A stretch of 64,000 bases of DNA, taken from the sequence record PX915678.1. The stretch is one strand, 5' to 3'. The position numbers and the translations under genes were made by a program. Position 1 is the first letter of the stretch. The number at the start of each line of letters is the position of its first letter. The notes under the pieces were generated by a model. It ran no database searches, had not been told where the DNA came from, and saw nothing but the letters and a program-made list of their open reading frames with translations. The stretch is from a phage. This document shows positions 29,908 to 40,567 of the stretch, in pieces.

Positions 29908-29937
29908 ACTATAACACAACACGAGGGACTTGTAAAC
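29908..29937 (-). promoter_or_regulatory. early sigma70-type promoter, repeat copy 1
   Basis: Minus strand GTTTACA - 17 nt with TGt - TATAGT; the -35 overlaps the stop of the alt paralogue. Confidence 0.65.
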
Positions 29938-31994
29938 TACATCTTGAACTTTTTAGACATTCCGTTGATGTTAACCAAAGAAGCCAAGATTTGAGAAACT
30001 TCGTTTTCCTCTTCTTTTGATTCTTCTACAAGGAATTGATTAAATCCAGCCATTGGACGAACTTCACCAGTTTCCATTAGATGATCGCCATCATATACCG
30101 ATTCTTCTAATTGTTCAGAAGGAGGAACGATTGTGCCTTCGATTAGATACTTGTTATAAGCAGTTTCTTTCATCATGTACGTGCTTACTTTATTAATCTT
30201 CAACAAAATTCCACGCGGTAGAATAACTTCAGCTTCTGATGGAAATCCTGATAAATGACCTGGAACGATAACTTTAATTCGCTCAGCTCCTTTTATTACC
30301 ATACCTACGCTAGTTTCAGCATCTTCATTCGCATAAGCAGAGTGACTACCCATATGCATTAAATCTTCAGCATCAACTGAACCTTCTCCTTCGCCAGAAA
30401 ATACTGCACCGGAATCATCTAGAGCCATATAGTTTTTACCATGCTCACCGAAGATATTTGGTTTAAGTGATGTGGATACGAAGTTCTTGAAATAGAACAT
30501 TTTGTTTTCAATATTATGACGTAAAGTTTTAAAAGTAACTTCTTGTCCACGATAAAGCGTAGTTCCTGGAGGAAGAACTGATCCTTTGGCGAATGCAGAA
30601 TCCATCGTCTCGATGTGTTTAATAGCTCGTTCCATGTATTCTTCACGGGTAGAATCTGGTTTACCCAAGAGGAACGAGTTCATTTCAACATATGAATCTG
30701 CACAATAATCTTCTATTACATCAGACTCAGCCTGAGTTAATCCTTTTGGAGTTACTTCGGTGCTTGCGTATTCATATGCCTGAGCAGCAGATTCATTAAT
30801 TAATTTATAAATGCCATTCATGACAAATTGAATAATAGCTACCTTTTCGTCTGGCGTGGCTTTAGAACCTTTAACTAAATCATTGATAATTTTTTTAATA
30901 ACATCAAAGCTATTAGAAATATTAATGTCAGCGAGATCGCTCAAAATTTTATCGGTTTTATAATCAAAAAATTCTTTATTCTTTAAATATTCTTGAGAAC
31001 CTTGATGTGTTATATCGCTCTGCAGTCTGATAGACGGATCACGTAAACGTGCATGGGCCAATGCAATATGATTTCGGAAGCTTTCTAGTTCATAATCGTT
31101 AGATTTAAAACGAGAAGCACTTCTCATACCACCGATAGCTCCTTTGCCGAAGTTTGAACCAATCTGAATAACGCCAGAGTTCATTGGTCCTTCTGCTTTA
31201 TATACCGGAACTTTAGATTCAAACTCTTGATATTTCTTAGCAGCGAAGCTATCGCCCTGGAGTGAAGCATCGACAGTAGAATATTGAGCTTGTGCTGCTA
31301 ATCGACGACTAATTTTAGTTTTCTGAATAACAGCTTGATCCGTGCGCTTATCATTTTCTAAAGCAATAGAAGCAGCAACAGCAACAGCTTTAGGAACAGC
31401 ATTACCTGTTTTGACATCTACATAAACATCACCAACCTTTGATTCAACTTTTGTGAATAACTCAGTTGAAATAGGAGGTACACCTGGAATGTCTTCTAAA
31501 TTGGCATTTTTACGGTAAACCATAATATATGCATACTTTTTATCGTAATCCCAGATTTCCTTTAAAAGAACATATCGACCTGCTCCTTTAGTACGTACTA
31601 AACGGTCAGCAATAACTTGCATTTGACGAGCAGCTCCATTTGTTTTACTTTTTAGTACGCGGAATAGGCATGCGTCAATTTTATACTGTTTCATTGTTTG
31701 AAGAGCAGTATCAAAAACCGCATTAATGACACCAATTGGATTTCCACCCAAGTTTTTAAGTTTAACTAATGATAGTTTCTCATTAACACCTATCATTACG
31801 ATATGCATCATTTTATCGCCTGGCTTAACGTTTTTATTTGTATCACCGCCAGAGGTGTATGTACAAAATCTAAATCCAGGAAGCACACTTTCTTCGCCGG
31901 CTTGAATAGCAAAAATTTGAGGTATTTTATGCTTAGGATTTAAGTTAACAACCGGCGCCGAAGCGCCGTCAAATAATTCTGTAATAAGTTCCAT
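29937..31994 (-). CDS. Alt-like ADP-ribosyltransferase, diverged tandem paralogue
   Basis: 685-aa ORF; N-terminus MELITELFDGASAPVVNLNPKHKIPQIF parallels the upstream alt; retains R/STS/ExE motifs (TLYRGQ...FVSTSLKPNIF...SEAEVILPRG). Confidence 0.88.
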   Translation of the reverse strand: MELITELFDGASAPVVNLNPKHKIPQIFAIQAGEESVLPGFRFCTYTSGGDTNKNVKPGDKMMHIVMIGVNEKLSLVKLKNLGGNPIGVINAVFDTALQTMKQYKIDACLFRVLKSKTNGAARQMQVIADRLVRTKGAGRYVLLKEIWDYDKKYAYIMVYRKNANLEDIPGVPPISTELFTKVESKVGDVYVDVKTGNAVPKAVAVAASIALENDKRTDQAVIQKTKISRRLAAQAQYSTVDASLQGDSFAAKKYQEFESKVPVYKAEGPMNSGVIQIGSNFGKGAIGGMRSASRFKSNDYELESFRNHIALAHARLRDPSIRLQSDITHQGSQEYLKNKEFFDYKTDKILSDLADINISNSFDVIKKIINDLVKGSKATPDEKVAIIQFVMNGIYKLINESAAQAYEYASTEVTPKGLTQAESDVIEDYCADSYVEMNSFLLGKPDSTREEYMERAIKHIETMDSAFAKGSVLPPGTTLYRGQEVTFKTLRHNIENKMFYFKNFVSTSLKPNIFGEHGKNYMALDDSGAVFSGEGEGSVDAEDLMHMGSHSAYANEDAETSVGMVIKGAERIKVIVPGHLSGFPSEAEVILPRGILLKINKVSTYMMKETAYNKYLIEGTIVPPSEQLEESVYDGDHLMETGEVRPMAGFNQFLVEESKEEENEVSQILASLVNINGMSKKFKM

Positions 31995-31997
31995 GAT

Positions 31998-34055
31998 TTA
32001 TCCTTGAACGAACTTGTAAGGCATGTTTGTAATATCTATGCAAGACGCAATAATTCCAAGAGATGATTCTACTTTTTGTTTAACATTTGATGAAACAAAT
32101 GATGCAAAGTCAACTCTGTCTTCTATTTCAATATCACCTGTCATTGCAACTACTTCACCAGTTTCCATTAGACGATCACCGTCATAAATTACTGATTCGG
32201 TGAGTTCTTCCGTAGTCATAACTTCAGCTTGAATAAGCTTGTTGTTAGTTTTAGCTGTTCCATCATTGTAAGATGCATCGGTTATTTTATTAACTTTGAC
32301 CATTAATCCACGTGGTAAAATGACTTCCATTTCATTTGAAGGCGCTAAACTTCCACCTGGTAAAACAACGTTGACTTTATCAGCCCCAGTAATAACCCAT
32401 CCAATTCCAACTAAATTATCGCTAGAATTAACAAGTCCTTCATCGTTTTTATCGATAGAAATGTTTAGACGCTTTTCGTCTGGTAAAACACCCACAGCTG
32501 AATCAGTCATCCAAGTACCAAAAATGTTTGGATATAATGATGTTGATACAAAATTTCTAAAATAAAAAACTCGATTTTTTACCAATGCTTCATATATTGA
32601 AGGTAACATTCGCTGTGAACGATATAAAGTAATACCTTTTGGCAGTCGATCACCATTTTTAAAGGCTGAATCTAAATTATCGATGGCTTGTTCTATTTCT
32701 GGTGCTGTTAAAATACTTGTACGTTCATCTGGATTATATAATCCCAAAAGAGCATTATTCATGTCTACATATCCTGAACCTACGTATTCACGAATTCCAC
32801 GTTTTTGTGCCGGTGTGTATTTAGACGGATCTTTATTTTCGACTATAGAATGCAATGACCATCCAACGGTAAGAGCATATCCACGTAATTCTCTTCGAAT
32901 AATCTTTGTTTTTATTGCATTCCAAGAATTTTGTACTAACTCATTCGCAGCATCTTGATTTAAATGCGAATGCTTGTTAATATTTCTTTCTAACCAAGCA
33001 CCTTTATATTTTTCTAAAGTATCATCGACTATAGAAGCAATAGTTTCTAAAGTTTTTATTGAAGTAATAGATTCTTTTCGTAATCTTTCTAAAGCTTTAT
33101 TTTTTATTTCTGCATTAACATCAGATTCTTTATCTTCAGGAATTATAGAAGCTTCTCTGAATGCCATTCCAGCTGTAACACTATTAAGAGCATTCTCTAA
33201 TGCAAATCCTGAAGTAGAAATAACAGTTAATTCATTAGCATCAGAAATTAAAGGCGCGTCAGCGGGTTTATTTAATTCTGCTGCTGAAGCCTCAAATTTT
33301 TGAAACATTGGTGTTTCAAATCTGGAAGATTCTAACGATTGACTTTGTGCAATTGCTCTACGGGAAATTTTAACTTTAACGATTACAGCTTGGTCAGAAC
33401 GTTTATCGTTTTCTTGTGCAATAGATGCTGCAATTGCCTCATTTTTAGTTACTTGAGCTCCGGTATCTTTATTGATATAAACATCACCGACTTTCGATTC
33501 AACTTTAGTAAAGAGCTCGGTACTAATTTCCGGAACTCCTGGAATGTCTTCTAGTGATACATTTTTGCGATGTATAAGAATATATGCATACTTTTTATCG
33601 TAATCCCAGAGTTCCTTAAGAAGGACGTATCTGCCACCTGAACGACTACGGATAAGTCTATCAGCAATAAGTTGAATTTGACGAGCTTGACCAGCAGTTT
33701 TAGACTTAAGAATACGGAGCATGCAGGCATCAATTTTATACTGACGCATCGTCTGCATCGCAACAGTAAAAACTGAATTGATGTAATTAATTGGGCTTGG
33801 ACCGAGACCTTTTAATTTAGCAATTGAACCTTTGGCAGTTAATGTAAAAGGAACAATATGCATCATTTTATCGCCCATCTTTAAATCGCGATTAGTATCA
33901 CCTCCAGATGTATAGGTACATAAACGAAAGCCTGGCTGTTCAATTGCGTCATCAACATGAACTGAAAAAATTTGTGGTATTTTCTTCTTTGGATTTAAGT
34001 TTGTAATCGGAAGAGTAGTATCTTCGTCAAATAATTCTGTAATGAGTTCCATCAT
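31998..34055 (-). CDS. alt: ADP-ribosyltransferase Alt (packaged internal head protein)
   Basis: 685-aa ORF recalled as very close to T4 Alt; ART motifs YRSQ...FVSTSLYPNIF...EMEVILPRG; minus-strand TATAAATA upstream. True start may be the second Met (34052). Confidence 0.93.
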   Translation of the reverse strand: MMELITELFDEDTTLPITNLNPKKKIPQIFSVHVDDAIEQPGFRLCTYTSGGDTNRDLKMGDKMMHIVPFTLTAKGSIAKLKGLGPSPINYINSVFTVAMQTMRQYKIDACMLRILKSKTAGQARQIQLIADRLIRSRSGGRYVLLKELWDYDKKYAYILIHRKNVSLEDIPGVPEISTELFTKVESKVGDVYINKDTGAQVTKNEAIAASIAQENDKRSDQAVIVKVKISRRAIAQSQSLESSRFETPMFQKFEASAAELNKPADAPLISDANELTVISTSGFALENALNSVTAGMAFREASIIPEDKESDVNAEIKNKALERLRKESITSIKTLETIASIVDDTLEKYKGAWLERNINKHSHLNQDAANELVQNSWNAIKTKIIRRELRGYALTVGWSLHSIVENKDPSKYTPAQKRGIREYVGSGYVDMNNALLGLYNPDERTSILTAPEIEQAIDNLDSAFKNGDRLPKGITLYRSQRMLPSIYEALVKNRVFYFRNFVSTSLYPNIFGTWMTDSAVGVLPDEKRLNISIDKNDEGLVNSSDNLVGIGWVITGADKVNVVLPGGSLAPSNEMEVILPRGLMVKVNKITDASYNDGTAKTNNKLIQAEVMTTEELTESVIYDGDRLMETGEVVAMTGDIEIEDRVDFASFVSSNVKQKVESSLGIIASCIDITNMPYKFVQG

Positions 34056-34075
34056 ATCCTCTCTAGTGTTTATTC

Positions 34076-34083
34076 TATTTATA
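34076..34083 (-). promoter_or_regulatory. late promoter (TATAAATA, minus strand) for alt
   Basis: Plus-strand TATTTATA about 21 nt upstream of the alt ATG. Confidence 0.65.
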
Positions 34084-34090
34084 AAATTAA

Positions 34091-34104
34091 AGGCCCGAAG
34101 GCCT
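34091..34104. terminator. GC hairpin between alt and the 62-aa ORF
   Basis: AGGCC-CGAA-GGCCT stem-loop flanked by AT-rich sequence. Confidence 0.45.
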
Positions 34105-34293
34105 TTAATAATCTATTGGTAAGAGAGTACGATATATTTCAAACTTTGGACCTTTTTCATAGGTATCAAATGTTTCTGTGAATTTATTATAAGCATATGC
34201 ATCTATAAATTCAATCATAATTTGTGATACAGAAGTAGAAACATCTCCGCCTTCTTTTTGAGCAACGACAATTGTTTCTAAGTAAGCTTTCAT
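34105..34293 (-). CDS. hypothetical small protein
   Basis: 62-aa ORF whose stop lies just before the alt late promoter; start overlaps the ligase stop. Confidence 0.55.
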   Translation of the reverse strand: MKAYLETIVVAQKEGGDVSTSVSQIMIEFIDAYAYNKFTETFDTYEKGPKFEIYRTLLPIDY

Positions 34294-35750
34294 AGACCAG
34301 TTACCTCATGAAAATCACCAAATACATCCTCGAATGTATTAGCTTTAGTTTTATCTTCACGTAAACGAATCGCAATCGGAAGAAATAATTTAACGTAATC
34401 AGTGCGGCCGTCAGATTTTAACCAACCATTGCATTCACATTCTAGAATTTTTCCAATATAATAATTTTGGTTTTCCATAATGCGAGTACGGTCAAGTTCA
34501 TGCGATTTTACACCGGCTTTATCTTTTAAGCCTGAACCAGCATTTACTTTAATTTTTCCACACTCTGATTCAAGAATAAATCCACCCGCTTTAGTTGGGT
34601 CTTTACGGTGAGGATAAATTCCTACAATTTTTAAATCAACATCAATTACTTCTTTAAATTTATAGAGATTTTTTGAACGAGAATTTTCCCATAATCCATC
34701 AATATTTTTGAGAATAATACCTTCAAGACCTTGGTCAATATACTTTTTATAAATTACCTTAGCTTCATCTAGGTTATTTACTACCTGGTTTTCAATTAAA
34801 ATTACTTTATCATATCCTGATGTCATTTGTTCTAGTTTAGAAAAACGTACATCATATTTTAAACGAAACGCCGGAAGACCGTATATTTCTACCAATGGGA
34901 CATAATCCCAGACCTGAAACTTCATGCATTTGGCTTCTTTTTCTGAAATAGTTCCCTTTAAAGATTTATTGGCGATTCCATTAGAAGCAGTACGTGATTC
35001 AGCTACTTCGGCAAACTCTTTGACTTTACTATTTTCAGGAGTATCAAAAAGAAAATCTAGGCCTTCTGGCTCCTTTTCAACTTGCTCATGGTATACCAAT
35101 TCGCCATCGATTAAAACACCTTCTGGATGAATCTGGCGGGCTTCAGCGGTCATTTTGATTAACTCTTCCTTAAGAAGATCTAATCCTAGATATTCATTAC
35201 CAGCTCGTGATAAAAGACGAACATCATCTAATTCATCGCCTCGGACTTCAGCAAAACACCGAGCTCCATCTGCTTTTAACTGTGCAAAGGCTGGAAATTT
35301 GATATTCTTACTAATGCCTTTTTCATCATAAGAACTTGCCAGCATTTGAGGTTGTTCAGGAATTAAACCTGGCCAAACTTTATTTGCAATAGATACTGAA
35401 GCACCGCATTCAAGATCTCGCATCATCACTCGACGCAAAACTTCAACATCATCCTTTTTACCGTCGGTGATATATCCAGTTAATTCCTCAATTGCCGCAT
35501 TTCCAGTCAATTTCCGAGTAGCTAACGTGAATTCAATGAAGTCAAGCATATCGGTAATAGTCAGCATTCCAAAACTCTGGGTAGCAATACCAGGTTTAGG
35601 CCATTTCTTGATATAATACTGTAACCCACGAGAATAAGTCAGACGATATACTCGTTTAAGCAATTCATTATCTTTATTCTTTTCAAGAATTGCTTGCTTC
35701 TGCTTAGTTGATCCAATAGATGCTATTTCATTCAGAATTTTAAGAATCAT
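34290..35750 (-). CDS. 30: ATP-dependent DNA ligase
   Basis: 486-aa ORF recalled as near-identical to T4 DNA ligase (MILKILNEIASIGSTKQKQAILEKNKDNELLKRVYRL...); adenylation lysine motif KADGAR. Confidence 0.97.
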   Translation of the reverse strand: MILKILNEIASIGSTKQKQAILEKNKDNELLKRVYRLTYSRGLQYYIKKWPKPGIATQSFGMLTITDMLDFIEFTLATRKLTGNAAIEELTGYITDGKKDDVEVLRRVMMRDLECGASVSIANKVWPGLIPEQPQMLASSYDEKGISKNIKFPAFAQLKADGARCFAEVRGDELDDVRLLSRAGNEYLGLDLLKEELIKMTAEARQIHPEGVLIDGELVYHEQVEKEPEGLDFLFDTPENSKVKEFAEVAESRTASNGIANKSLKGTISEKEAKCMKFQVWDYVPLVEIYGLPAFRLKYDVRFSKLEQMTSGYDKVILIENQVVNNLDEAKVIYKKYIDQGLEGIILKNIDGLWENSRSKNLYKFKEVIDVDLKIVGIYPHRKDPTKAGGFILESECGKIKVNAGSGLKDKAGVKSHELDRTRIMENQNYYIGKILECECNGWLKSDGRTDYVKLFLPIAIRLREDKTKANTFEDVFGDFHEVTGL

Positions 35751-36016
35751 TGCTCATCCTTCAAGGTTTGGTTTACAGCTCTATTATAAATCAATTCATC
35801 ATTAAGCTCAGGCAAAGACTTATGATATGTAGTTCTAACTTTATTTCCTTGCATCCAATGCTTGACGTAAATGAAACCTTGCTCTACGCATTTTTTAAAA
35901 ATTCGTTCGTCTTTTTGAGCTCGGAATTCTGGATTGCATCTAAAGAATTGATTTACGTGACCGTAATCACGTGTAGTATTACCTTCATTTTCATAAATAG
36001 TGTGAACGACAAACAT
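35747..36016 (-). CDS. hypothetical protein (30.x island)
   Basis: 89-aa ORF, ATG start, 4-nt overlap with neighbours. Confidence 0.6.
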   Translation of the reverse strand: MFVVHTIYENEGNTTRDYGHVNQFFRCNPEFRAQKDERIFKKCVEQGFIYVKHWMQGNKVRTTYHKSLPELNDELIYNRAVNQTLKDEQ

Positions 36017-36846
36017 TAGAATGCTCCTTGAAAAATATTATCACCACTAGTAGGTCTATTATACAAATACTCTATGCCACCAGGTTTAATATAGTTCCAT
36101 GTCTGAAATGGATGTGTCTGATATGGATGATTATAAGGATTAAATCCAGGCGTTCTCCAGGTAGTGTTCCAAGGAAAAGAATCGTTTTTAACCATCTTCT
36201 CAATTAAATCTTTTATAGCTTTTTCACTATCAAAACTTTCTTTATTTTCCTTCGGTGAAAAAAGCTTATTTTCTACATCATTCCATGTATAAACTCGCTG
36301 AGCAGTTTTTGGAATATTGTCACGCTCTCCTCGAGCCATCCAATAAACAGGAACATTTAATATTTCACTCGCGTGGTCGCAGTGGTGAGCGAGATCGTCA
36401 ATATAACAAATTACGTTATATTTCTCTTTTGCCTTTTTAAACAACTCTTCTTTTGAAGAATCATGACCACACATCATTACTTCTGAGAATGCACCAGGAA
36501 AAAGAGCATTCAAATTAAATTGACGATTCAGCAGAGCGTCAATAGAATCACCCAATGCTGTAACAGCTACAAAATTATAATCTTCTTTTAGTTTGTTAAT
36601 TACACATAGAGCATCTTTATATGGGGATAAGTAACGAATAAAATCTGATCGATTATATTTTTCAATTAACTTGACACCGAGTTCTTCATCACAATTAAAG
36701 AGTTTACCTGGAGAAATAAATTTCTCATCTTGGATCATTTTTAAAATATGTTCTAACGGAAGATTATATTTCTGAGCAAAATAAGGAAGACCTGATTGCC
36801 AGCTTAAACATACTCCATCAATATCAGTTAAAATAGTAGGCTTCAT
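36016..36846 (-). CDS. HAD-superfamily hydrolase-like protein (putative nucleotidase/phosphatase) with C-terminal extension
   Basis: 276-aa ORF; N-terminal HAD motif I (ILTDIDGVCL) and a downstream acidic motif (VICYIDDLAHH); roughly 100 C-terminal residues lack HAD features. Confidence 0.65.
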   Translation of the reverse strand: MKPTILTDIDGVCLSWQSGLPYFAQKYNLPLEHILKMIQDEKFISPGKLFNCDEELGVKLIEKYNRSDFIRYLSPYKDALCVINKLKEDYNFVAVTALGDSIDALLNRQFNLNALFPGAFSEVMMCGHDSSKEELFKKAKEKYNVICYIDDLAHHCDHASEILNVPVYWMARGERDNIPKTAQRVYTWNDVENKLFSPKENKESFDSEKAIKDLIEKMVKNDSFPWNTTWRTPGFNPYNHPYQTHPFQTWNYIKPGGIEYLYNRPTSGDNIFQGAF

Positions 36847-37301
36847 AGAGAGTCTCTTAATAGGTTTAACACATCAATAAATTCAGCTTCGGTTAGTATT
36901 GTATCATCTTTTGTTAGACCACTAGCCATGCTGTGCTTCAAAACTTTTCCTTTCGAGGCTTGTAATGCATCGCGAAAGCCCTTGTTTTGGAACGCTGCTT
37001 CAAAATATGCATTTGTGTATAATTCTTTCCACGCCGGGGAATATCTTGAAAACGGAGTTCCAAGCCAGAAGAGGGTCCCACGGTCCTGAGCTCTAGCATA
37101 AGACCTTCCAGCTTGTTGGGCGGCAAGCCCGGATAACCCAAATATACGACGTTGTTGTTCAACATTTTTCACCTTACACCCTTGGAGGAATCCTTCTAGA
37201 CCTCCAAATTGAATACCATCCATAACGAAAGGCCATTGGGCAAAATTACTTAATGCGCATGATGGCCATTTAAAATTGCTTCTTATCTCTAGCTCAGACA
37301 T
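36843..37301 (-). CDS. NADAR/YbiA-like (DUF1768-type) protein
   Basis: Track ORF starts at TTG (37307); ATG at 37301. The block LSNFAQWPFVMDGIQFGGLEGFLQGCK resembles the YbiA/NADAR signature (SNFA.WP...DG......E..FQ..K), from memory. Confidence 0.6.
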   Translation of the reverse strand: MSELEIRSNFKWPSCALSNFAQWPFVMDGIQFGGLEGFLQGCKVKNVEQQRRIFGLSGLAAQQAGRSYARAQDRGTLFWLGTPFSRYSPAWKELYTNAYFEAAFQNKGFRDALQASKGKVLKHSMASGLTKDDTILTEAEFIDVLNLLRDSL

Positions 37302-37500
37302 TTTCAATACTTATAATTTCAACATCAGCCCAATGACCATAGCAAGGAAGACGAAATTCAACTGGCCAGTTAGGGTCCTTTTCTAATATAATAGACTGAA
37401 CTTGTGGCTCTTCATATTCATCGGTATACGGACCTTTATACGTTACTTTATATGTGACTTTAATGTATTGAATTCCAAAAATCTTATTAATTATATTCAT
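37294..37500 (-). CDS. hypothetical protein
   Basis: 68-aa ORF, ATG start, in a head-to-tail overlapping array. Confidence 0.5.
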   Translation of the reverse strand: MNIINKIFGIQYIKVTYKVTYKGPYTDEYEEPQVQSIILEKDPNWPVEFRLPCYGHWADVEIISIENV

Positions 37501-37694
37501 ACTAATTCCTTTAATCCGTAAATAGGAGATAATTCATCACCCATACGAAGGTCTTCATTTCCATCTACCCAGGAAACAATATAAGCTTCTTTTATTTGAA
37601 TACCACTCCATTTAAATGGAGGTAGAACCTTAGAAATTAATCCAGGTATACCAACTCCCTTTAATTCAACAGTTTGACCTAAAAAGAATTTCAT
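37497..37694 (-). CDS. hypothetical protein
   Basis: 65-aa ORF, 4-nt overlaps both sides. Confidence 0.5.
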   Translation of the reverse strand: MKFFLGQTVELKGVGIPGLISKVLPPFKWSGIQIKEAYIVSWVDGNEDLRMGDELSPIYGLKELV

Positions 37695-37981
37695 TAGAAC
37701 CTCATCTGAAAACCGTGCGATTTAACATTACCGCCGCCAATATCAGAAATATTAATTTCACGCGCAATTGAAGGGTCAATGTCAATTTCACGATTGAGTT
37801 TAGTGATAGCTAAAGTATCGCGGCCATTTACAGTACGGAACTCTAAAGGACATACTACATTAACATAGTTTTTAATCGATTCACTGGTAGGTTGCAAATG
37901 AGCAGGAAGGTCTTTAGGCGCCTTTGAGAAAACTACTTCACAGAAATTTTTGCGGGTGTCAAAATAAGTAGTCATAAACAT
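37694..37981 (-). CDS. hypothetical protein
   Basis: 95-aa ORF; GC hairpin just beyond its start. Confidence 0.55.
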   Translation of the reverse strand: MFMTTYFDTRKNFCEVVFSKAPKDLPAHLQPTSESIKNYVNVVCPLEFRTVNGRDTLAITKLNREIDIDPSIAREINISDIGGGNVKSHGFQMRF

Positions 37982-38022
37982 AGTATTTTCCTCAATGAGG
38001 GGCCGAAGCCCCTCATTTTATT

Positions 38023-38388
38023 TTAAATATCAAATTCGTTAAGAACTACATCAAAGATTGCTTCAAGATGCTCAGGTTTAGCTCTGTTACTCAAAATATG
38101 ACGAATCCAAGTTTTAACCAGAAGCTTACGATTAACGCCATTCCAGCAAGGATGAGTCCCTAAATCGCGTTGACGAAAATCATCATCCAAAGCGATTTTG
38201 AAGTTGGAACCTTCCATTGTGATTGAAACTGTGATGCCATTTTCAAATCGCATATAAACGTAGTTAGGAGTCATATACTGTTCAATTTCGCATACTGATC
38301 CATTTTGATGTTTCCAAAGGCAAATAGTATCAATAGAACCTGCAATACCATTAGAAACATATTTACGTTCAAAGTTGATGTAGTTCAT
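38023..38388 (-). CDS. hypothetical protein
   Basis: Track ORF starts at TTG (38400); ATG at 38388 preceded by GGAG gives 121 aa. Confidence 0.55.
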   Translation of the reverse strand: MNYINFERKYVSNGIAGSIDTICLWKHQNGSVCEIEQYMTPNYVYMRFENGITVSITMEGSNFKIALDDDFRQRDLGTHPCWNGVNRKLLVKTWIRHILSNRAKPEHLEAIFDVVLNEFDI

Positions 38389-38455
38389 TTTATTCTCCAA
38401 GATGTTTAATTGCGGTACAGGTATATAATATCATATCCTGTACCAAAGTAAACAA

Positions 38456-38788
38456 TTATTTTACTACTTTCCAGTGCTGCATGTCAAGTTTACCAACTTT
38501 TTTCATCTTCTCAATTAAGCGTTCAGCACGTTGGCGAGCTGTAACATAATACCATTCACCCAATTCATTTTGTTCAATTTTTCCAACGATTACTGTATTC
38601 AATTCATAAATCCAACCAGTAAAGAAATTATGAACTTGAATTGTAAAGGTGAAATCTGTTCCCATACCTTCTGTTGTTTCTACTTCAATAATATCACCTT
38701 CAACTGCCATTAAGAACCACATAGTTTCATCATATTTACCATTGAAGCATTTAGTTTTAACTGTAGCGTTCAGATTAATCGTTTTCAT
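38456..38788 (-). CDS. hypothetical protein
   Basis: 110-aa ORF; early-promoter-like GTTTACA-N17-TGnTAGTAT upstream. Confidence 0.55.
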   Translation of the reverse strand: MKTINLNATVKTKCFNGKYDETMWFLMAVEGDIIEVETTEGMGTDFTFTIQVHNFFTGWIYELNTVIVGKIEQNELGEWYYVTARQRAERLIEKMKKVGKLDMQHWKVVK

Positions 38789-38815
38789 TTTATTCTCCTT
38801 TGTTTGTGTAAGATA

Positions 38816-38844
38816 ATACTATCACAAAGGAACCATACTGTAAA
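38816..38844 (-). promoter_or_regulatory. early promoter upstream of the 110-aa ORF
   Basis: Minus strand GTTTACA - 17 nt - TGaTAGTAT. Confidence 0.45.
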
Positions 38845-38865
38845 CAACTTTGTGCAATCTTTGGA

Positions 38866-38893
38866 AAATAAAAAAGGACTCCCGAAGGAGTCC
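38866..38893 (-). terminator. terminator after the small basic protein gene
   Basis: GGACTCC-CGAA-GGAGTCC hairpin followed on the minus strand by a T-run. Confidence 0.65.
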
Positions 38894-38898
38894 TCAAC

Positions 38899-39075
38899 TT
38901 ATGCTTTCTGCTTACCAAAACGAGAAGCATCATCTCGAAGAACCGCACGTGCTCGGCGCATGATCTTCTCAACAGTTTGATTGATACGAGAGTTCGACCC
39001 ACGCTTGTAACCAGCGCGTTTAGAATCACCAACTTTCTTTTCAACTGCTTTCTTTGCTTTAGCTTGTTTTGCCAT
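38899..39075 (-). CDS. small highly basic protein
   Basis: 58 aa from the ATG at 39075 (MAKQAKAKKAVEKKVGDSKRAGYKRG...); the track's longer ORF extends to a non-ATG start; hairpin plus T-run terminator downstream. Confidence 0.55.
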   Translation of the reverse strand: MAKQAKAKKAVEKKVGDSKRAGYKRGSNSRINQTVEKIMRRARAVLRDDASRFGKQKA

Positions 39076-39117
39076 TATAAATTCTCTTTTAAATGAAAAT
39101 GCAGGACTTATTGGCAT

Positions 39118-39470
39118 TGCCTGCGCAAGCCCTCAAGGGGAACATAGGTTTTGTATATTTACCGACAGGATAACCATAAACCCGTCATCATACTTATAAC
39201 TCTTATCTGTTGCACACCGTTAGCTTAAAGGTTCCGGGTTCGATTTCTCGAGGATAAGATATATACTGATGGATATATAGGCCTTGAGGCGTACTCCCGA
39301 TTAGCCATCACCTCGGGGTAGCATGCACTTGCCGCTATAAGAATAACATTCAAGAGGTACACCGTAAAACTGCCGGGGTCTTAAAACTATAATGATTCGC
39401 AAATCATTAATCAGACAGTTCGACGGCTCCTCGATTTTAGCTCACACTAAGGCAGTGAATCTCCAATAAA
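39118..39470. other. ORF-free region of about 350 bp between rIII and the small basic protein gene
   Basis: Stops in all six frames, no ORF of 60 aa or more, in an otherwise almost gap-free genome; contains complementary GC-rich segments. Confidence 0.6.
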
Positions 39471-39719
39471 TTACTTCAGTGTTACCACAAAGTGACGAAC
39501 TGCTTTTCGTGCAGCAGAAGCCAAAGGCTTAGCATATTTAAGTTCATCTTTTTCCTGAAGCTCAGCAGCTAATGCAGTTTGAGCAGGATTCAGATGTTTG
39601 AAATAACGCAGGATTTCAAGAGCTTCGGCTTCAACATCAATAGATGCGCCATAGTTTTCGTGACCATTATTCCATGCGTTTCGTTGCAGTTCAAGAGCGT
39701 GTTGTAATTGTTTAATCAT
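39471..39719 (-). CDS. rIII: rIII lysis-inhibition accessory protein
   Basis: 82-aa ORF (T4 RIII is 82 aa) directly downstream of gene 31. Confidence 0.88.
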   Translation of the reverse strand: MIKQLQHALELQRNAWNNGHENYGASIDVEAEALEILRYFKHLNPAQTALAAELQEKDELKYAKPLASAARKAVRHFVVTLK

Positions 39720-39866
39720 TTAAAAATTCTCGTTAGAGATTAAAACTCGGTAGTCACGTTCTTCTGAATTTCATCTTCTTTCGACAGATCTCTCAGTTGT
39801 AGACTACCACATAGAATTGTTCGGTTAACTTATTATTCCGACACCCAATTCATATTATTATTTATA

Positions 39867-40202
39867 TCACTTATAAAGACACGGAATAGCTTTATAGTGA
39901 CAGGTAACGAATTTTTGTTTAATTTCTTTTGGCTGCTTAAGACCCAGAGCTACAAAAGGATGTGGAACGTTTCGAATTTGACCAACTGGAAGAGAAGTCA
40001 AATCACCAACTTCACAGAAACCTTCAGGAACATCAGGACCAACAGAGTGAACTACACACAGTTCAGGAACTTCACCTTGAACACGTTTACCGATAATAAG
40101 TCCTGATTCTGTAACTTCTTCATCACCGGCTTGTGCAGGTTCAGAAACTAAAATAACATATTCACCGACAGCACGAATTGGTAGCTGTTGTACTTCAGAC
40201 AT
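39867..40202 (-). CDS. 31: co-chaperonin gp31 (GroES-like)
   Basis: [39 protein letters not shown]... recalled as T4 gp31; 111 aa from the second ATG. Confidence 0.95.
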
Positions 40203-40258
40203 CATTTTTCCTTTTTGTTAACAGATGAATTAATAATAACAAATAATTCTTAAAGCAT

Positions 40259-40567
40259 TTATTTACCAATAAATTGAAGCAAATGCTCAACTTTCATACC
40301 ATTAACGGAAATCAATTTGTTAATAGAAAAACCTCGCCACTCGCCAAGCTCAACATCAAATACTGGAATCATATCAGTAGATTCTTTCCGGGCAGATTCA
40401 GTCAATTTACCAGTTTGCATGGTTGGCATAAAATCGGCATCACGAGTACCTTTCATAGTACGAATAGTACCATCAGACTTTTCAAAAACTACGTTTGAAA
40501 TACCCATAGACAATTTAGTTTTCAAAATTTCACGAATTGCTACTTTTTGTTCAGTCGTCAGTTTCAT
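40259..40567 (-). CDS. hypothetical protein (T4 31.1 position)
   Basis: 102-aa ORF between 31 and cd. Confidence 0.65.
   Translation of the reverse strand: MKLTTEQKVAIREILKTKLSMGISNVVFEKSDGTIRTMKGTRDADFMPTMQTGKLTESARKESTDMIPVFDVELGEWRGFSINKLISVNGMKVEHLLQFIGK

Follow-up and report, generated by a model that had tools for sequence, protein, structure and literature searches.

An intact allele of T4 gene 30.3 (adfN), a probable NADAR guanine-ADP-ribose hydrolase countering DarTG1, in a T4-like phage genome

The closest described system is the product of gene 30.3 of phage T4. Johannesman et al. (Nat Commun 2025) renamed T4 gp30.3 as AdfN, for anti-DarT factor NADAR (PMC11825919). Recombinants of the crosses T2 x RB69 and T4 x RB69 mapped DarTG1 resistance to the 3' part of 30.3, and deletion of adfN in T4 or T2 abolished plaquing on DarTG1 cells (PMC11825919). 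AdfN-T4 was both necessary and sufficient for DarTG1 resistance, with full rescue of RB69 by ectopic adfN-T4, and the rescue given by the E36A and K43A variants was only partial (PMC11825919). Purified AdfN-T4 strips ADP-ribose from DarT1-modified DNA in vitro, and in two-hybrid assays it did not associate with DarT1 (PMC11825919). The DarTG1 sensitivity of RB69 was traced to an inserted T at gene position 411: the last 15 residues, those of the C-terminal helix, are cut off, and the truncated protein has reduced activity (PMC11825919). In addition, an independent biochemical study found that T4 gp30.3 hydrolyses guanine-ADPr and not thymine-ADPr (PMC11125620). The T4 phage NADAR, which consists of the NADAR core alone, appears again among the G-ADPr hydrolases (PMC12945103). 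Furthermore, a HIDEN-SEQ transposon screen of T4 showed that insertions in 30.3/adfN are lost specifically on DarTG1 hosts (bioRxiv 10.1101/2025.11.20.689424). The gene is described as conditionally essential on DarTG1 hosts and dispensable on plain K-12 (PMC11825919; bioRxiv 10.1101/2025.11.20.689424). Resistance to DarTG1 during infection has been shown for the T4 and T2 alleles only.

The window analyzed here is a stretch of 64,000 nucleotides (record PX915678.1) from a phage which, judged by its sequence, is T4-like (Tequatrovirus-type). The 2 kb around the gene share 97% identity with Escherichia phage EPIMRB01 and with hundreds of further T-even records. The T4 gene order is kept: alt, alt.1, 30, 30.1, 30.2, 30.3, 30.4 ... 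rIII, 31, cd. The ORF of 152 aa described by an earlier sequence-only reading was confirmed on the minus strand, from an ATG (37301-37299) to a TGA (36845-36843). Its product has the same length as T4 gp30.3 (NP_049816) and is identical to it at 148 of 152 residues (97%), and the two genes align over 459 nt without gaps. High identity, equal length and the location between 30.4 and 30.2 mark the gene as the orthologue of the AdfN-T4 gene. The Pfam family PF08010 (Phage_30_3), a sister family of PF08719 (NADAR), was matched over model positions 1-138 of 138, with 232.3 bits (gathering cut-off 36) and E = 1.9e-69. This ORF is very probably an allele of T4 gene 30.3/adfN encoding a NADAR G-ADPr hydrolase that counters DarTG1. 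The coordinates of all features are given in Table 1.

Table 1. Features of the adfN region, in positions of the window
Feature	Coordinates	Strand	Size or sequence	Basis
adfN (T4 gene 30.3) CDS	36843..37301	-	152 aa, stop codon included	
Overlap of 30.4 stop and adfN start	37294..37301	-	8 nt, ATGTCTGA	read from sequence; ORF coordinates
Gene 30.4 ORF, upstream of adfN	37294..37500	-		
Overlap of adfN stop and 30.2 start	36843..36846	-	4 nt, ATGA	read from sequence; ORF coordinates
NADAR active-site motif, codons E36-K43	37173..37196	-	EGFLQGCK	invariance; aligns with YbiA E-x3-Q-x2-K
Codon E36	37196-37194	-		residue mutated in AdfN-T4
Codon K43	37175-37173	-		residue mutated in AdfN-T4
Codon H123, last-strand catalytic position	36935-36933	-		invariant; model strand 120-122/123
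C-terminal helix, codons 138-151	36849..36890	-		model; no indel relative to T4 near gene position 411
Gene 30.2, HAD-fold hydrolase (predicted)	36016..36846	-	276 aa	predicted structure
DNA ligase	34290..35750			PF01068
Alt-type ADP-ribosyltransferase 1	29937..31994	-	685 aa	PF03496
Alt-type ADP-ribosyltransferase 2	31998..34055	-	685 aa	PF03496

The program-made ORF list places the start of adfN two codons further upstream, at a TTG at 37307, giving 154 aa. The ATG at 37301, taken here as the start, is the one annotated in T4 and lies inside the last codons of 30.4. Both ends of adfN overlap their neighbours, so the gene is packed tightly in a long minus-strand run that spans genes 30.9 to 30. 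A scan for promoters and terminators over positions 34000-40500 gave counts no higher than those in shuffled sequence, and nothing specific to adfN. Between genes 30.6 and 30.7 (37994..38017) there is a GC-rich perfect hairpin, AATGAGGGGCCGAAGCCCCTCATT, with a T-rich tract after it; its terminator-like score is on the plus strand, that is, opposite to the genes. The GC content over adfN (36850..37300) rises to 0.44, while the flanking genes have 0.30-0.37. Such a rise would be compatible with a foreign origin from a bacterial NADAR, but proves nothing alone.

The internal ORF 30.3', annotated in T4, is also present inside adfN (36938..37165, minus strand, +1 frame), with 75 aa and 93% identity. 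A run of 76 codons without a stop in this frame is shared with T4, PSD2002 (Dhakavirus) and VR26 (Gaprivervirus); RB43 and Acj61 have a shorter one, and JSE has none. The predicted 30.3' may be translated, or its open frame may simply follow from codon content in frame 0.

The NADAR/YbiA-like assignment made by the sequence-only reading is supported by fold, catalytic residues and orthology. When a profile of the gp30.3 family was compared with PDB sequences, E. coli YbiA (2b3w) was found with E = 9.5e-4. Residues 16-44 (ALSNFAQWPFVMDGIQFGGLEGFLQGCKV) were aligned to the YbiA segment FSNFAAWPIKVDGKTWPTSEHYFQAQKF, the profile block LSNF...EGFLQSLKF being paired with FSNF...EHYFQAQKF of YbiA. 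This is the block that the sequence-only reading had recognized as NADAR-like, and it is real. The window protein itself gave no direct match to Pfam PF08719 (NADAR/DUF1768) at E <= 1, while 19 of the 47 family members did match this model (best E = 1.5e-7). These members are a diverse sample of gp30.3 proteins taken from the protein database, and form with the window protein an alignment of 48 sequences. Residues E36, G37, F38, Q40, K43 and H123 are invariant in all 48. The invariant positions number 23 in total, all of them kept in the window protein, as follows from its being the first row of the alignment. At the last-strand position, His is typical of the phage gp30.3 clade, Glu of the YbiA type and Asp of the DarG1 type (PMC11125620, PMC11543638, PMC12945103), and H123 matches this published definition of the gp30.3 clade. 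In the predicted structure, obtained from an alignment that left out the T4 sequence row, the protein starts straight with the NADAR core, with a strand at residues 3-5.

Other collections said little about the protein. NCBIfam and PADLOC gave no match to it, and the sole match in PHROGs was phrog_652, whose function is not annotated. In PADLOC, the model PDC-M42C of a candidate defence system matched 32 of the 47 gp30.3-family members weakly (best E = 3.4e-5), which suggests that this candidate system may include a NADAR-type component.

In fold comparison, the match of the model to YbiA was as good as that to NADARs acting on DNA. As NADARs of the YbiA type cleave N-glycosidic bonds in riboflavin intermediates, the adfN product could mainly process soluble ADPr derivatives or small N-ribosides, such as immune signals or riboflavin-pathway intermediates, and not ADP-ribosylated DNA. 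However, the Glu that defines YbiA is His in this protein (H123), and its T4 orthologue takes ADPr off DNA in vitro and becomes essential precisely when the host carries DarTG1. Such a main role is very improbable, while a secondary small-molecule activity may exist.

The allele differs from T4 gp30.3 by four substitutions: K11 for R, T82 for V, F104 for I and M125 for I. All four are outside the invariant family columns, and M125 is the family consensus (HSMG). The C-terminal helix lost in the frameshifted RB69 allele is intact here, there being no RB69-type frameshift at position 411. The RB69 protein is a natural loss-of-function allele, and about a dozen protein-search clusters cover at most two-thirds of the query, so that the ORF could also be seen as a decaying remnant, inactive like its RB69 counterpart. 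Against this, the ORF has its full length and shows neither insertion nor deletion when aligned to T4, 23 of 23 invariant positions are kept, and the substitutions are placed as described; the probability of decay is close to nil. The four changes probably leave function unchanged in this allele. Given the orthology, the key residues, the intact helix and the position of the substitutions, we infer with high confidence that it shares the activity of AdfN-T4. Our evidence for the hydrolase is that the gene is an orthologue, intact and of full length, that its product has the NADAR fold and that the catalytic residues are conserved, while hydrolysis itself and resistance to DarTG1 would be as published for the 97%-identical T4 protein. 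For that orthologue, the reversal of guanine-ADPr against DarT-type toxins, which the sequence-only reading had proposed, has been shown experimentally. The same reading had named a conserved 30.x gene with a characterized, unrelated function as the outcome that would speak against it. The gene is indeed conserved and characterized, but its function is the predicted one.

According to the mechanism proposed here, AdfN would be a minimal, core-only NADAR-fold ADP-ribosylglycohydrolase, made from the minus-strand gene run 30.9 to 30. In a host carrying the DarTG1 toxin-antitoxin system, infection would release DarT1, which would ADP-ribosylate guanine in the phage DNA and so block replication. 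AdfN would then cleave the N-glycosidic bond of guanine-ADP-ribose by means of E36, K43 and the clade-specific H123, presumably without binding DarT1, and the restored, unmodified DNA would allow the phage to replicate. Since AdfN is inactive on thymine-ADPr, it would give no protection against DarTG2.

This picture of lesion reversal by one enzyme is incomplete, because AdfN-T4 does not neutralize DarT1 in uninfected E. coli and rescues T5 and Bas25 only weakly. The authors of the experimental papers proposed that an additional factor encoded by T-even phages is needed for full activity, and AdfN-T4 does seem to require one. Our literature search found no later paper naming this cofactor.

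The downstream gene 30.2 was considered in this respect. Its protein had no Pfam match and no meaningful match among PDB sequences, and its HAD fold was recognized by structure-based search only, not by sequence. The model has a confident core (residues 1-197, pLDDT >90) and a disordered C-terminal tail. In Foldseek the core matched HAD-superfamily hydrolases with E of about 1e-8 to 1e-7, the best structural matches being YfnB (3i76) and 5'(3')-deoxyribonucleotidases (2jao, 2i7d, 3bwv). Across 39 homologues of 30.2, residues D8, D10, K132, D150 and D151 do not vary, as expected for HAD motifs. The predicted core is that of a HAD-superfamily hydrolase. That 30.2 is the T-even factor needed by AdfN-T4 is pure speculation, and we consider it very doubtful. 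If it were, 30.2 might process the released ADP-ribose or a phosphoribosyl intermediate, or might localize AdfN. The idea is weakened by the arrangements in JSE, where 30.3 is fused directly to ligase and no 30.2 is annotated, and in RB43, where three ORFs lie between 30.3 and 30.2.

The genomic context given by the sequence-only reading, a ligase nearby and two ADP-ribosyltransferases about 3 kb from the ORF, is correct. Both Alt-type genes are full-length, and the gap from the nearer Alt gene end to adfN is 2.8 kb. The tandem Alt paralogues share 41% identity. Of the two, the second (31998..34055) is the orthologue of T4 alt (96%), and the first (29937..31994) has its full length in this phage, as it does in about 400 phage records with >=95% identity.

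The functional tie to the Alt genes that had been suggested from this proximity was not supported. The presence of two full-length Alt genes 2.8-7 kb away, with the same orientation as adfN, would fit a product that erases the marks of the phage's own ADP-ribosyltransferases, whether these paralogues or ModA/ModB. However, 30.3 homologues are kept in RB43 and JSE near ligase, and in CcrColossus (non-Straboviridae) beside RNA ligase and helicase, in each case with no annotated alt within 5 kb, and Acj61 has its alt on the other strand. Furthermore, the ADPr removed by every NADAR tested is base-linked (G, some C), while the annotation of Alt is that of an arginine-directed protein ADP-ribosyltransferase, and the phenotype of the adfN deletion is specific to DarTG1 hosts, the gene being dispensable on plain K-12. 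An eraser of the phage's own marks is thus extremely improbable. Coupling of adfN and Alt was rejected, as the linkage is gone in RB43, JSE and CcrColossus and the NADARs tested act on guanine-ADPr in nucleic acid. The tie is also not needed, because the proximity is the inherited T4 gene order, which phages further removed do not show. That T4-like NADARs are expressed together with phage ADP-ribosyltransferases as early genes was noted earlier (PMC9503650).

The function of adfN and its reading as a NADAR are already published, and nothing biologically new comes from this window. Its value is one of annotation: the function of 30.3 has been established since 2024-2025 and database labels lag behind, "hypothetical protein" still being the label in most of some 1,500 phage records with 30.3. 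An intact adfN predicts growth of the phage on E. coli that carry DarTG1, a point to consider when phages are chosen for their host range.

Compared with known systems, this allele is closest to AdfN-T4, with which it shares the same neighbours and E36, K43 and H123. The two phages differ in that this one has a full-length second Alt paralogue, whereas T4 has only the remnants alt.-1 and alt.-2. DarG1, the NADAR antitoxin of DarTG1, differs in several respects. The Geobacter lovleyi NADAR (PDB 8bat), for example, has 219 aa with an N-terminal extension, against 152 here, and DarG1 has a catalytic Asp in the last strand where the window protein has His. DarG1 is encoded beside DarT1, while adfN is an orphan with 30.4 and the HAD-fold 30.2 as neighbours in a wider region of T4 early genes, and AdfN-T4 cannot replace DarG1 in uninfected cells. 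The adjacent DarT1 and the N-terminal extension with Asp that characterize DarG1 are therefore both absent from adfN. E. coli YbiA (2b3w; YbiA-type, PF08719) has about 20% identity to the window protein and Glu in the last strand instead of the His invariant in the gp30.3 family, which places adfN outside the YbiA subfamily. It also differs in having a housekeeping role in riboflavin metabolism and a LexA-controlled operon.

Among phage factors, AdfN-Bas32 (T5-like) and AdfN-Bas60 (Vequintavirinae) are, like adfN, guanine-specific NADARs that reverse DarTG1. However, they belong to other NADAR clades than gp30.3 and were acquired independently. They are active in uninfected cells and for unrelated phages, while the gp30.3 type needs T-even infection for full activity. 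AdfM (T4 Tk.4) and AdfA (T4 61.2 family) are, like adfN, anti-DarTG factors of T-even phages. AdfM is likewise a proposed enzymatic eraser that mimics an antitoxin, but its fold is that of a macrodomain and it acts against DarTG2 (thymine-ADPr). For AdfA, the RB69 variant R164H associated with DarT1 in a two-hybrid assay, and its presumed mode of action is a direct block of the toxin and not DNA repair.
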